Source: Candidatus Woesearchaeota archaeon (GTDB lineage: Archaea; Nanobdellota; Nanobdellia; Pacearchaeales; GW2011-AR1). From it: a stretch of DNA of 64,000 nucleotides. Of this stretch, positions 28,613 to 31,815 are shown piece by piece. The translations under genes and the position numbers were made by a program. The stretch spans positions 32,001 through 96,000 of the forward strand of contig CAZETU010000002.1 in NCBI GenBank assembly GCA_964514585.1, read 5' to 3'. Numbering within the stretch: the stretch's first letter is position 1; each line of letters begins with the position of its first letter. The notes below the pieces were generated by a model, which saw only the letters and a program-made list of their open reading frames with translations, had not been told where the DNA came from and did not search any database.

Positions 28613-28909
28613 TGTCGTTTGGAAAAATTTATAAGGGGAGTTCTCTGTTAATATTTAATATTATTATTAGAAACAACGACAAACAGTAACCCTCCAGATA
28701 TTTCAGGATGTTTTTCATCCAAGTGACCTTATTTTTTAGCTTAGATGAATCTGCGTTTTATCTTTGAAATATCTTGGAATACGTCGCTGTTCTTATGAAA
28801 TATCTTAGAATAAGTGGGGATTGGTAGGTTATTGAAAGGAACGGATTGCGGAAAACGTGTTGTATTTTATGAACGCAATGAAACGTGTTTTGGTTGAAAG
28901 GGGTTTTTC

Positions 28910-30520
28910 ATGTTTAAGGTAAGGATGTTTGTGATTGTGTTGGTGACGTGCGGTGTGGCTTGCGGGCAGTTTACTGGCGGAACTGTGGCGGGAACTGAGG
29001 TAGAGATTGTCATGGAAGGAGATTTGTCTGTTTCAGAGATGATTGGAGATAGGGAGGTTGATCTGGGCGAAATCTCCTTTGATGGTAGAACTGGCAAAGT
29101 TTCTATTGATGCCGGCATTTTTAGGTCGGAGTCTTTTCCTGATGGAACGGGGAAGATAGAGATGGGTAATCCGTTTCTCAGAGCCGGATTTATCAATGAT
29201 GATAATGGGGATCCACGGGCTATTATGTTTATTACTGGAGACGTGGGTCCTTTGGGTAGCGTTACGATTGAAATGGAGGGAGAGGCTTGGCAGTTTATGA
29301 CTGGAACGACTGCTGGTGTAGATGTTCCTTTGGATCAATGGCCCGAACCTAGACCTCTTAGGATTAAATGGGAGGGGCCTCTTGGGGAAGCGGTTGAGTA
29401 TTCGGTTGATTCGACTTGGGAGTTTGCAGTGGCGGCTTCTGAGTATATTGATTTTGATTTACTCGGCGATGAGATGTCCGATGTGTCGACGTTTTCTCTT
29501 TCTCTTGTCGATTTCTTCGGTGATTTGGCAAGGTCCTGGCTTGATGAGGGTGTTCTTGAGTTTACAGAATTGCCGAGCTATATGGATCCTAGCATCTCTG
29601 CTGCTGAAGCTCTTCGTGAACGGTTGATTGTGAGTGGCGATTTCGTTTTCGATCCCACTTCTGATCCTGGCACCGAACCTGTTGATCCCGGCACCGAACC
29701 TGTTGTCCCCGGCACCGAACCTGTTGATCCCGGCACCGAACCTGTTGATCCCGGCACCGAACCTGTTTTCGATCCAGCAGTGAGGTATGGGCTTGGTTTT
29801 GATACTGGCTTTATTAAGTACAGTACGGGGGAAACGGTTAAGGTTGTCTTAATGAATTCTTCTCCGCATGATATCCAAATGTATTCTGATGGAGCGGGCT
29901 ATTCGGGAGGAGGGATTCTTACTGGAGAGTATCCTGCGAGCTATGGGGATGAAGGTGGTCCAACGAATTCGGTGGAGGTGTCTTATGTTTCTAAGAAAGA
30001 TCTCTTTGCTTCTCGTGATTATGATGCTTTCTCTTTGGGGAAGTGGGTGGGTCCGGATCTGAGTTCTGATGGTGGGGATCCTACTGAGGGGGTTTATTTG
30101 CCGGTTGTTGTTGCTTATGTCACTCCGATTGGTGATATCCCTACTGAAGGTGAGGCGACCTATTTTGGCAAGAATGGTGCGCTTGGAAAGGTCATTTATC
30201 TGAAGAGAGATATTGACTCCTTGCCGTTTGCGGCCAATGTCTTTCTGAAAGCTGAATTTGCTAAGGGTCTTATCAGTGGGGGTATTAACAATATCTATCT
30301 TGAGGATGGCAGCCATATGTCGGCATTTGGTCTCCTTCTTGTGATGGGGAAAAATGGTATTGCTATTGGTGAGATAACTCACGGCATGGCGGCTGGTAGA
30401 GGGAGGGCTACTACTATCTTTGTTGGAGAAGATGCCGGAGGGATAATCGGATCTGCTCTTTTCAAGGGAAGTGAGGGTAAGATCGAAGTCCCGATTATTT
30501 TCGGTGCTGATCGTCAATAG
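28910..30520 (+). CDS. Secreted protein with TbpB-like C-terminal beta-barrel (type XI secretion cargo-like)
   Basis: Signal peptide with possible lipobox Cys; TPIGDIPTEGEATYFG, LKAEFAKGLISG, FVGEDAGGIIGS, terminal IFGADRQ resemble the TbpB/HphA barrel pattern. Confidence 0.7.
   Translation: MFKVRMFVIVLVTCGVACGQFTGGTVAGTEVEIVMEGDLSVSEMIGDREVDLGEISFDGRTGKVSIDAGIFRSESFPDGTGKIEMGNPFLRAGFINDDNGDPRAIMFITGDVGPLGSVTIEMEGEAWQFMTGTTAGVDVPLDQWPEPRPLRIKWEGPLGEAVEYSVDSTWEFAVAASEYIDFDLLGDEMSDVSTFSLSLVDFFGDLARSWLDEGVLEFTELPSYMDPSISAAEALRERLIVSGDFVFDPTSDPGTEPVDPGTEPVVPGTEPVDPGTEPVDPGTEPVFDPAVRYGLGFDTGFIKYSTGETVKVVLMNSSPHDIQMYSDGAGYSGGGILTGEYPASYGDEGGPTNSVEVSYVSKKDLFASRDYDAFSLGKWVGPDLSSDGGDPTEGVYLPVVVAYVTPIGDIPTEGEATYFGKNGALGKVIYLKRDIDSLPFAANVFLKAEFAKGLISGGINNIYLEDGSHMSAFGLLLVMGKNGIAIGEITHGMAAGRGRATTIFVGEDAGGIIGSALFKGSEGKIEVPIIFGADRQ
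29663..29767 (+). repeat. 5 x 21-bp coding tandem repeat (DPGTEPV)
   Basis: gatcccggcaccgaacctgtt x5 with minor variants. Confidence 0.97.
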
Positions 30521-30546
30521 TTTCGTCTAGGAAAAGGAGTATTACA

Positions 30547-31752
30547 ATGAAGCAGCTACTAGTGTTCTTCGGAGTTTCTTTGGTGTTTGCGGGAACTTCC
30601 GTTGCGTCTTTATCAGTTGGCGAAATGCAAGTGTTATTCAATTCCGGCATGGATGATGTCGAGACTGGGGAGCTTGAGGGATTCGAGAGTGCTATCGAGA
30701 AGTTTGAGACGATACGTGATGACTATCCAACTCTTCCTCGAATCAGGTTGGAACTAGGAAACGCGTATCGTCTGAATGAGCAAGGATTTTCGGCTGGTCG
30801 AGAGTTTGAGGAAGCTCTTGCTCTTGATCTCGATGATGAGATATCTGCCGAAAGAAGGGCAGGTATTGAGAAGTACATCGATGCTTATACGCGTCCGAAA
30901 CTAGACGTGGAGGTCGGTGTCAAGGTTATGCACAATGATAACGTTACAGCGGGGCCGTCTGATGACCTTGTTACTCTTTGGGGAATTGATGGATGGCGGC
31001 TTGGCGAGGGTCGCAAGAAGTCGGACAATGCGCTTTTAACGTCTATTGGGATATCTTATGTTGTCCCGATGGATGATGCGATTTCATGGTTCACCTCTTT
31101 CAACTTCGATTCAACGAACTACAGTTCGTTGGAGGACCATGATTTCCAGCTTGCCAGACTTTACACTGGCCTGGCGGTCAAGGCGGGGGAAGTGTTATTG
31201 CAGTTACCGCTTACTGCGGATTATTCCCTGTACAGGGGGGACCCTTATGCGGCCAACATTGGGGTCAATCCCCGTGCTACGATTGATTTGGGGGAGGGTT
31301 TCTCTTTGAGTGTTTTGGCTATGGTCTCTAAGAGAGACTGTCCTTTCCTCTGGGCTCGGACGGGCTTGGTATATGGGGGAGGTCTTTCCCTTCGCAAGGA
31401 TTTTGGCAAGGGCCTTGTTGCTTCCGGAGGGTATCAGCGCTTGAGGGAGGATACGAAACTCGCTTCGTATAGCGCCGACGTGGATTTCTTCTACGCTAGG
31501 TTCATGAAGACTTGGGTCGATTTTTCAGTGAACTTTTCCCCGAGTCTTTCCCTCAGGGAATGTGACGAATCTTTGCCGTATCTCACTGAGCCTCGAGAGG
31601 ACAAGCGGCTTACTTTGCCGGTTGGTATCGAGTATGCCGTTACCGATGGTCTGAGTTTCGTGGCGGAATATATTCGAACAGAAAATAGGTCTGATGATCT
31701 GTTCGAGCATGACCAGGAGAAGGTCATCGGCGGATTTATTTTCAGATTCTAG
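30547..31752 (+). CDS. TPR plus outer-membrane beta-barrel protein, Slam/DUF560-like
   Basis: Signal peptide; TPR with PRIRLELGNAY; HNDNVTAGPS; amphipathic strands; PREDKR..EYIRTENRSD; C-terminal Phe (GGFIFRF). Confidence 0.75.
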   Translation: MKQLLVFFGVSLVFAGTSVASLSVGEMQVLFNSGMDDVETGELEGFESAIEKFETIRDDYPTLPRIRLELGNAYRLNEQGFSAGREFEEALALDLDDEISAERRAGIEKYIDAYTRPKLDVEVGVKVMHNDNVTAGPSDDLVTLWGIDGWRLGEGRKKSDNALLTSIGISYVVPMDDAISWFTSFNFDSTNYSSLEDHDFQLARLYTGLAVKAGEVLLQLPLTADYSLYRGDPYAANIGVNPRATIDLGEGFSLSVLAMVSKRDCPFLWARTGLVYGGGLSLRKDFGKGLVASGGYQRLREDTKLASYSADVDFFYARFMKTWVDFSVNFSPSLSLRECDESLPYLTEPREDKRLTLPVGIEYAVTDGLSFVAEYIRTENRSDDLFEHDQEKVIGGFIFRF

Positions 31753-31759
31753 TTCATCC

Positions 31760-31815
31760 GGGTAGGTTATCGAGCACACCTTTGGGTGTTGTCTTGAGCC
31801 TACCCTTACTTTTTT
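31760..31815 (+). terminator. Bacterial-style intrinsic terminator after the Slam-like gene
   Basis: gggtagg...cctaccc stem with inner acacc/ggtgt stem, followed by a T-tract. Confidence 0.6.

Follow-up and report, generated by a model that had tools for sequence, protein, structure and literature searches.

A Slam/TbpB-type secretion pair in the chromosome of a DPANN archaeon, and its possible use in the outer membrane of a bacterial partner

Why should a small archaeon carry, side by side, a translocon and a cargo protein of the bacterial type XI secretion system, as exemplified by Neisseria Slam1 with TbpB and fHbp and by Xenorhabdus NilB/HrpB (PMC8406197, PMC12282271, PMC9090332)? The question is raised by two genes in a 64,000-nucleotide stretch of DNA, here called the window, which is part of contig C2 (CAZETU010000002.1) of a Candidatus Woesearchaeota genome (G000; 1.04 Mb, 89.65% complete, 0.54% contaminated). 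The 16S gene of this genome is of archaeal type, and the organism is recurrent in salt-lake metagenomes; together with genome size and the shape of its order, the 16S gene suggests a Pacearchaeota-like DPANN lineage. An earlier interpretation of the letters (the sequence-only reading) had recognised a Slam/DUF560 translocon and a TbpB-type cargo inside an archaeal chromosome, and this holds, on the evidence of homologues, a structural model, the Atlas and contigs that bridge both junctions. By structural and genomic criteria the pair conforms to a type XI system. Our preferred, though tentative, reading is that it is of bacterial origin, is kept by small DPANN archaea and works in the outer membrane of a diderm partner. 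The cassette is best explained as an exchangeable unit, found mostly in the gatA-DHH interval of Pacearchaeota-like DPANN archaea. Its coding features are:

28910-30520, forward strand: cargo gene, 536 residues, with a Sec signal, an N-domain at about 20-250, a Pro/Asp linker, and a handle plus TbpB/fHbp-type barrel at about 287-536.
29662-29770, forward strand: 21-bp tandem repeat coding for the DPGTEPV linker; its copy number differs between assemblies (536 or 529 residues).
30212-30394, forward strand: hypervariable stretch in the cargo barrel (dN 0.33 and dS 0.42, the nonsynonymous and synonymous divergences, against locus L009; dN upstream of it 0.04).
30547-31752, forward strand: Slam/DUF560-type translocon gene, 401 residues, with a signal peptide, TPR at 24-114, a 14-strand barrel at 118-400 and a terminal Phe.

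The signal peptide, TPR, Slam motifs, amphipathic strands and terminal Phe first noticed in the 401-residue protein are all confirmed. A full library search returned 201 relatives of the window Slam, and 126 of these were aligned for an AlphaFold2 model of high predicted accuracy (predicted local distance difference test, pLDDT, 95.6; predicted template modelling score 0.85). The model comprises five helices at residues 24-114 and then exactly 14 strands at 118-400, which answers the objection that the predicted fold might not be a barrel. The majority of the strands have one hydrophobic face; the terminal Phe401 is intact, near-invariant across the 126 homologues and retained in all seven complete clade members; and a Sec signal peptide can be read from the sequence. 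The best solved structural match is CymA (Z 21.6, root-mean-square deviation 3.6, 271 residues aligned) and the second OmpG (Z 20.1), both of them 14-strand channels. No Slam structure is among the fold matches of the model, PDB sequence searches with each protein singly gave no match, and neither did a scan of the genome_contigs set for Slam. Against PF04575 the window Slam scores 19.7 bits (E 7e-4), a weak match under the Pfam cut-off of 22, and its clade-mates P0004, P0005, P0006, P0159 and P0160 match the family. The cargo, in turn, has no Pfam match of its own, whereas its homologues match PF01298. Because the window proteins fall below the Pfam cut-off or have no match, the identity of Slam and cargo rests on the homologues, the model and the Atlas, which places the window Slam with Slam clusters at 0.98-0.99.

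The 536-residue protein does end in a TbpB-type barrel, as had been proposed. All four full-length cargo homologues match PF01298 (best E 1.6e-9), a profile of the homologues finds the structures of NHBA (GNA2132), fHbp and TbpB, and in the Atlas residues 285-536 fall with TbpB_B_D, HpuA and hemophilin clusters (features 0.92-0.95; template modelling score, TM, 0.59-0.74), resembling fHbp clusters also by features and model. A single-sequence AlphaFold2 model of the whole cargo reaches a pLDDT of only 33, and a profile of the other cargo N-domains detects neither the window N-domain nor the bacterial sister cargoes. Cys14 and Cys18 lie outside any canonical lipobox, and the cargo of locus L048 has no cysteine there; we therefore assign the cargo to the soluble class, having rejected a surface lipoprotein of the TbpB/fHbp class on the missing lipobox cysteine. 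The hypervariable stretch of the barrel is replaced in a contig from a marine run. The predicted complex of Slam with cargo scores 0.56 against 0.02 for the best control, with contact agreement of at least 36% and partner pLDDT of at least 44. Of 80 solved pairs 58 reach the mark used for this score, as do 2 of 110 mismatched pairs, and the scores at 0.60 or under comprise 7 solved pairs and both mismatched ones; the model thus lends weak support to binding between the two proteins.

The linkage of the pair to the archaeal chromosome is genuine. As first described, the two open reading frames are intact, adjacent and rich in G+C (47-49%, compared with 33-41% in the flanks and a genome mean of 37.2% with a standard deviation of 3.2% in 2.9-kb windows), an excess of about three standard deviations that is equalled by three other islands in the genome. 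The bin does contain the contaminant contigs C8, C14, C15 and C16, which is what might be said for an artefact of assembly or binning. At the contig level this is refuted: assemblies from ENA, JGI and Logan have the identical 401-residue Slam on 15 contigs of up to 448 kb, where the neighbours of the pair are also the same, at 99.9% identity; read depth over the island is even, at about 4-7, in three salt-lake runs; single contigs bridge the left junction (27710-29698 and 27769-29704) and the right (31539-32694); and other species carry the pair at the same site. Chimerism is excluded, and to an artefact we assign a negligible chance. The JGI samples may come from Antarctic lakes. The contigs named are likely contaminants on their own content: C8 and C14 carry Bacteroidota-type genes, C15 (52% G+C) is a transposase/ExeA-type contig, and C16 has three integrase-like genes. 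The genes around the pair are:

26205-27206, reverse strand: DHH/DHHA1 phosphoesterase gene, the left conserved flank, whose 5' end also borders the pair in L044.
27257-28612, forward strand: two accessory archaeal genes, for a DUF2238 membrane protein and a Cys-rich protein, in the same variable interval as the cassette but outside it.
31879-33210, reverse strand: gatA (amidase), the right conserved flank, which also borders the pair in L009 and L012.

The pair is an insertion at a variable site. Both accessory genes are missing in L044, where DHH directly adjoins the cassette, and in none of 32 genus genomes does the gatA-to-DHH interval, with its zero to about five other genes, contain the pair. 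Between DHH and ftsZ (24920-26140 of the window) lies the gene of a 406-residue protein that faintly matches glycoside phosphorylases (GH130), and diverged homologues of it (22-29% identical) occupy the same place in several genus genomes. Six further copies were found in archaeal or archaeal-like contigs, three of them at the same site as in the window: L009, from a second lineage at 90% DNA identity, has the pair beside gatA, L012 likewise borders gatA, and L044 adjoins DHH. In L045 and L047 the pair comes after a gene that has paralogues on C2 of this genome; there, a LamG gene and three large surface-protein genes, paralogous to one another, are clustered at C2:24200-32492, and it is in this neighbourhood that the cassette is found in those two loci. 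L011 is probably archaeal, by composition only. The cargo adjoins the translocon in the window, L009, L012, L044, L045, L047 and L048, and every copy that has sequence on both sides retains the gene order, both domains and the Slam-type barrel of the cargo. The pair thus belongs to a small family shared by related archaea and is no isolated recent arrival. Its distribution is patchy: among 400 genomes of the order a barrel match was found in none besides the window genome (65 other matches were rejected as TPR only), and PF04575 was found in none of 400 class genomes, a weak test in which the controls gave no signal.

In the tree the window protein falls inside Slam proteins with TbpB cargo. 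The archaeal Slams, P0005 and the L048 Slam form one clade of nine (support 100/99) within a clade of 13 (100/99), as sister to bacterial Slams with cargoes of 1000-1300 residues. These bacterial sisters span at least two phyla and so point to no one donor group; Sedimentisphaerales as the sole donor is weakened by a sister that is not a planctomycete.

Are the genes maintained by selection? Against L009 the ratio of nonsynonymous to synonymous divergence (dN/dS) is 0.31 for Slam (95% interval 0.20-0.44), 0.67 for the cargo C-half (0.43-1.1) and 0.06 for gatA; among the other archaeal copies it is 0.25-0.35 for Slam, 0.34-0.41 for the cargo N-domain and 0.59-0.71 for the C-half. The archaeal copies are under purifying selection, and no copy has a frameshift. 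The partial amelioration first suspected from codon use, with both frames intact, is borne out at fourfold sites: the cargo has C at 0.17 and T at 0.47 and the Slam gene C at 0.21 and T at 0.38, compared with 0.06 and 0.55 on the host leading strand. In L011, L044 and L047 amelioration to the host strand bias is complete, and the genes are still intact. This bias is itself very strong: along the whole of contigs C1-C7 it keeps to one direction, with a GC skew of mostly 0.2-0.45 and, on one strand, T at 0.55 and C at 0.06 of fourfold sites, which would fit unidirectional replication.

The history of the cassette differs from that of its site. Between the window and L009 the island has a dS of 0.16-0.17, about a third of the 0.50 of gatA, and the L012 Slam is 29% identical to that of the window at the same site, where gatA is 79% identical. 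Because the island dS is low and same-site Slams are far more divergent than gatA, the cassettes have probably been exchanged between species and not simply inherited. The same values, in suggesting recent lateral spread, are what one would expect of a non-functional or self-spreading passenger repeatedly acquired from bacterial DNA at a permissive site. Such a passenger would not readily account for dN/dS well below 1, for the lack of frameshifts, for several copies that are fully ameliorated yet intact, or for a terminator whose structure is kept despite sequence change. Nor were an integrase, a transposase or a flanking repeat found at the window locus, which by recombinase or terminal repeats does not qualify as a mobile element; IS200-type or RAYT-type transposases stand beside the pair only in L011 and L048. 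We consider a mere passenger very improbable.

The expression signals of the cassette are of a mixed kind:

28621-28634, forward strand: archaeal-type promoter candidate (GGAAAAA resembling a transcription factor B recognition element, then TTTATAA), about 280 nt ahead of the cargo start.
28660-28909, forward strand: long non-coding leader that holds short motifs common to several loci.
28688-28698, forward strand: leader motif AACCCTCCAGA, common to several loci.
28776-28784, forward strand: leader motif GGAATACGT, common to several loci.
28895-28902, forward strand: Shine-Dalgarno sequence of the cargo gene, GAAAGGGG.
30530-30539, forward strand: Shine-Dalgarno sequence of the Slam gene, GGAAAAGGAG.
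31760-31815, forward strand: intrinsic-terminator-like hairpin (31760-31805) followed by TTAC and T6 (-25.9 kcal/mol, z -5.3).

Native genes of this genome are mostly leaderless, with a TATA element at -32 to -20 in 58% and a Shine-Dalgarno-like motif in 20%. The archaeal cargo and Slam starts have a Shine-Dalgarno sequence in all 12 cases, as does the third gene of L047. The bacterial-style terminator that had been noted after the pair is supported by the stability of its hairpin. In L009 the terminator is a different sequence with a 20-bp stem, a UUCG loop and paired changes (L009:2036-2077), and each of the five archaeal cassette ends that were examined has a hairpin (-19.7 kcal/mol or stronger) followed by a U tract, mostly in unrelated sequences. 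Among 369 native gene ends, 9 have such a terminator, three of these lying in other islands; this rate is a slight underestimate, since the strict screen misses the window's own hairpin with its 4-nt gap before the U tract, and the Shine-Dalgarno and terminator counts are not independent, since the archaeal copies are related. No sigma-70 promoter was found above chance. TATA-like runs similar to that at 28621-28634 precede the leaders of L044, L045 and L047, and from its sequence the window candidate may well be used.

The leader has no stable RNA fold (z -0.6), and Rfam has no match in the homologous leaders. The leaders of L045 and L047 are 78.6% identical, compared with about 54% identity at synonymous sites of their genes; between leader and cargo gene these two loci also have small Shine-Dalgarno-led open reading frames (L045:600-940 and L047:1174-1290). 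The three other GC-rich islands (C2:153000-161900, C2:193800-200400 and C5:31600-38800; L132, L133 and L134) show a weakened strand bias, encode short ORFan proteins of secreted or membrane type, and have strong Shine-Dalgarno sequences and some hairpin terminators; their heads share short motifs with the cassette leader. The motif ACCCTC(A/C/G)AGA of the leader has three occurrences in one of them, with 0.17 expected in all three, a lead only, because the motif was picked after the matches were seen. A count of DPN/EPN motifs, with short open reading frames left out, does not separate the islands from core genes.

Where, then, would the proteins work? Both would leave the cytoplasm by Sec, and the Slam barrel would sit in a second membrane, to which the cargo, recognised through its C-terminal barrel, would be brought and passed through Slam. 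A second membrane is implied because Sec alone would free a soluble cargo from a one-membrane cell, and yet the translocon with its terminal signal and the targeting barrel of the cargo have been kept together. The dependence on Bam that the sequence-only reading stated concerns insertion of the outer-membrane barrel, and in that respect it stands. It needs correction for the passage of cargo through Slam, which requires Skp, not Bam (PMC9090332). Searches of this genome that did detect their controls yielded no Omp85, POTRA, Skp or secretin, and the archaeal contigs showed no further barrel-like C-terminus or envelope machinery of note. The window had been said to lack a TonB-dependent receptor, and the archaeal contigs as a whole have none; the one in the bin, on C8, which shows no strand bias and carries Bacteroidota-type genes, was rejected as contamination. 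Neither such a receptor nor heme genes are linked to the pair at any archaeal locus seen. Because assembly factors were not found and the distribution is patchy, a diderm partner's outer membrane is the likeliest candidate for this second membrane. The archaeon would borrow the partner's Skp and Bam, its proteins being exported into the partner's periplasm during attachment or invasion, or the cassette being expressed in the partner; the fast-evolving handle and barrel of the cargo could form a ligand-binding surface or a released protein for nutrient or metal capture or adhesion.

Planctomycetota (Phycisphaerae) are the leading candidate partner. L048 is a pair of the short-cargo type in a planctomycete-like contig with flanks of 63% G+C, in which a neighbouring gene is 85-89% identical to Planctomycetota proteins. 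Its cargo groups with the archaeal L045 cargo (100/100), and T occupies 45% of the fourfold sites of this cargo, as in the archaea, compared with 5-6% in the flanks; 401 Phycisphaerae-class genomes gave no match to the short cargo type. Together this fits a transfer from archaeon to planctomycete. L011 (1354-2055) and L047 (4125-5012) have a homologous third gene after Slam, 40% identical, in which the C-terminal modules are swapped, PEP-CTERM in the one case and in the other a dockerin-like module that is multicopy in Phycisphaerae genomes (counted there only). PEP-CTERM normally requires a bacterial exosortase. A further planctomycete link is a sister pair in one Sedimentisphaerales genome. 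The genome also encodes an N-acetylmuramoyl-L-alanine amidase (PF01520, E 1.5e-36) with a lipoprotein-like signal (C2:190600-191310; L133:1601-2308). The close contact with a diderm bacterium that was first suggested thus gains evidence from L048, the Phycisphaerae-like third genes and the peptidoglycan amidase, and remains unproven. Its most specific form, in which the archaea parasitise a diderm, likely of the Phycisphaerae, whose Skp and Bam install the archaeon-encoded secretion system in the host outer membrane, we judge unlikely as it stands. Under it, the cassettes would be bacterial-style expression units made to serve in the host, into which their products, transcripts or DNA would pass, and the L048 copy with its archaeal signature would be a trace of delivery.

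Several observations weigh against use in a bacterial partner. We know of no route by which Sec substrates of an epibiont enter the periplasm of a host. L048 is a single contig of 5.5 kb; an archaea-only clade is not rejected in the Slam tree (approximately unbiased test, p 0.10); the sister pair occurs in one of 301 Sedimentisphaerales genomes (G541), on a 7-kb contig; and the sister clade includes a non-planctomycete genome, its RpoB 48% identical to that of Sedimentisphaerales. Two proteins of the other GC-rich islands have no match in Pfam or in 80 Sedimentisphaerales genomes. The assembly factors are to be taken as not found, not as absent, because the genome is 89.65% complete. The anti-Shine-Dalgarno sequence is intact in the 16S gene and some native genes have similar Shine-Dalgarno motifs; with the upstream TATA element, the archaeon itself can therefore probably express the cassette.

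That last point would suit an archaeon with its own second membrane, or with one acquired from its host on release, across which Slam would export the cargo. The barrel would insert there spontaneously, by an unrecognised insertase or by host Bam carried along. Double membranes occur in Ignicoccus and ARMAN, archaeal TATA-led transcription is plausible, and both genes are kept together with binding weakly predicted. The independence of cargo passage from Bam (PMC9090332) would also favour it. The patchy distribution, in order and genus and, by a weak test, in class, and the lack of any other barrel-like C-terminus or envelope machinery on the archaeal contigs tell against such a membrane, which we regard as doubtful.

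The window Slam itself raises another alternative: its branch in the tree is long (1.46 substitutions per site), and it is one TPR unit shorter than its bacterial sisters and falls under the Pfam cut-off. It might have been repurposed in a one-membrane cell, the cargo serving as a Sec-secreted adhesin or scavenger and the barrel, placed in the cytoplasmic membrane or at a host contact, as a pore or receptor that translocates nothing; the fast evolution of the cargo C-half is as expected of a host-facing binder. Repurposing does not explain, however, why gene order, both domains and the Slam-type barrel of the cargo are so consistently kept, nor would it need bacterial-style expression signals, and an energised membrane would probably leak through an open barrel of 14 strands. 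We think it improbable. Use in a diderm partner's outer membrane remains our preferred, still tentative, reading.

What the locus means can be put in three ways: a selected pair that lacks recognised assembly factors would imply that a bacterial host's machinery is borrowed, that there is an unrecognised second membrane, or that the barrel works free of Bam and Skp. To our knowledge the hosts of Pacearchaeota are not known. All cultivated DPANN archaea have archaeal hosts (PMC11291902), and bacterial hosts have already been proposed for some Pace- and Woesearchaeota (PMC8204110, PMC9723730). The locus suggests both a candidate partner group, the Phycisphaerae, and probes, and the host question is therefore testable in the salt-lake samples in which the organism recurs. 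We found no report of type XI systems in archaea, the surveys found describing Proteobacteria with archaea unmentioned, and the pair would extend type XI secretion beyond Bacteria.

Compared with the known Slam/TbpB systems, the archaeal pair has the same adjacent cargo and translocon genes, the same TPR with a 14-strand barrel and terminal Phe, and a cargo with a Sec signal and a C-terminal TbpB_B_D-type barrel. It differs in its location in an archaeal chromosome, where Bam and Skp were not found and the archaeal contigs have no TonB-dependent receptor, and in its shortened TPR, extra cargo N-domain and Pro/Asp linker. With the soluble Slam cargoes of hemophilin type (HphA, Hpl, HrpC) and HpuA, the archaeal cargo shares the lack of a canonical lipobox and a handle plus barrel of about 250 residues; it is about twice as long and has no partner receptor gene. 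The nearest Slams are those of the bacterial sister clade (P0007, P0161, P0162 and the Sedimentisphaerales genome G541), which are 37-48% identical to most archaeal copies and 26-29% to the window Slam, with gene order and a TbpB-type cargo in common. Their cargoes, in contrast, are 1000-1300 residues long with unrelated N-terminal parts and without the strand-biased codon signature. The murein transglycosylases of Pace- and Woesearchaeota (PMC8204110; PMC9723730) likewise suggest contact with bacterial envelopes, but those enzymes are degradative and act from outside, whereas the pair described here belongs to a system that normally needs periplasmic chaperones and an outer membrane.

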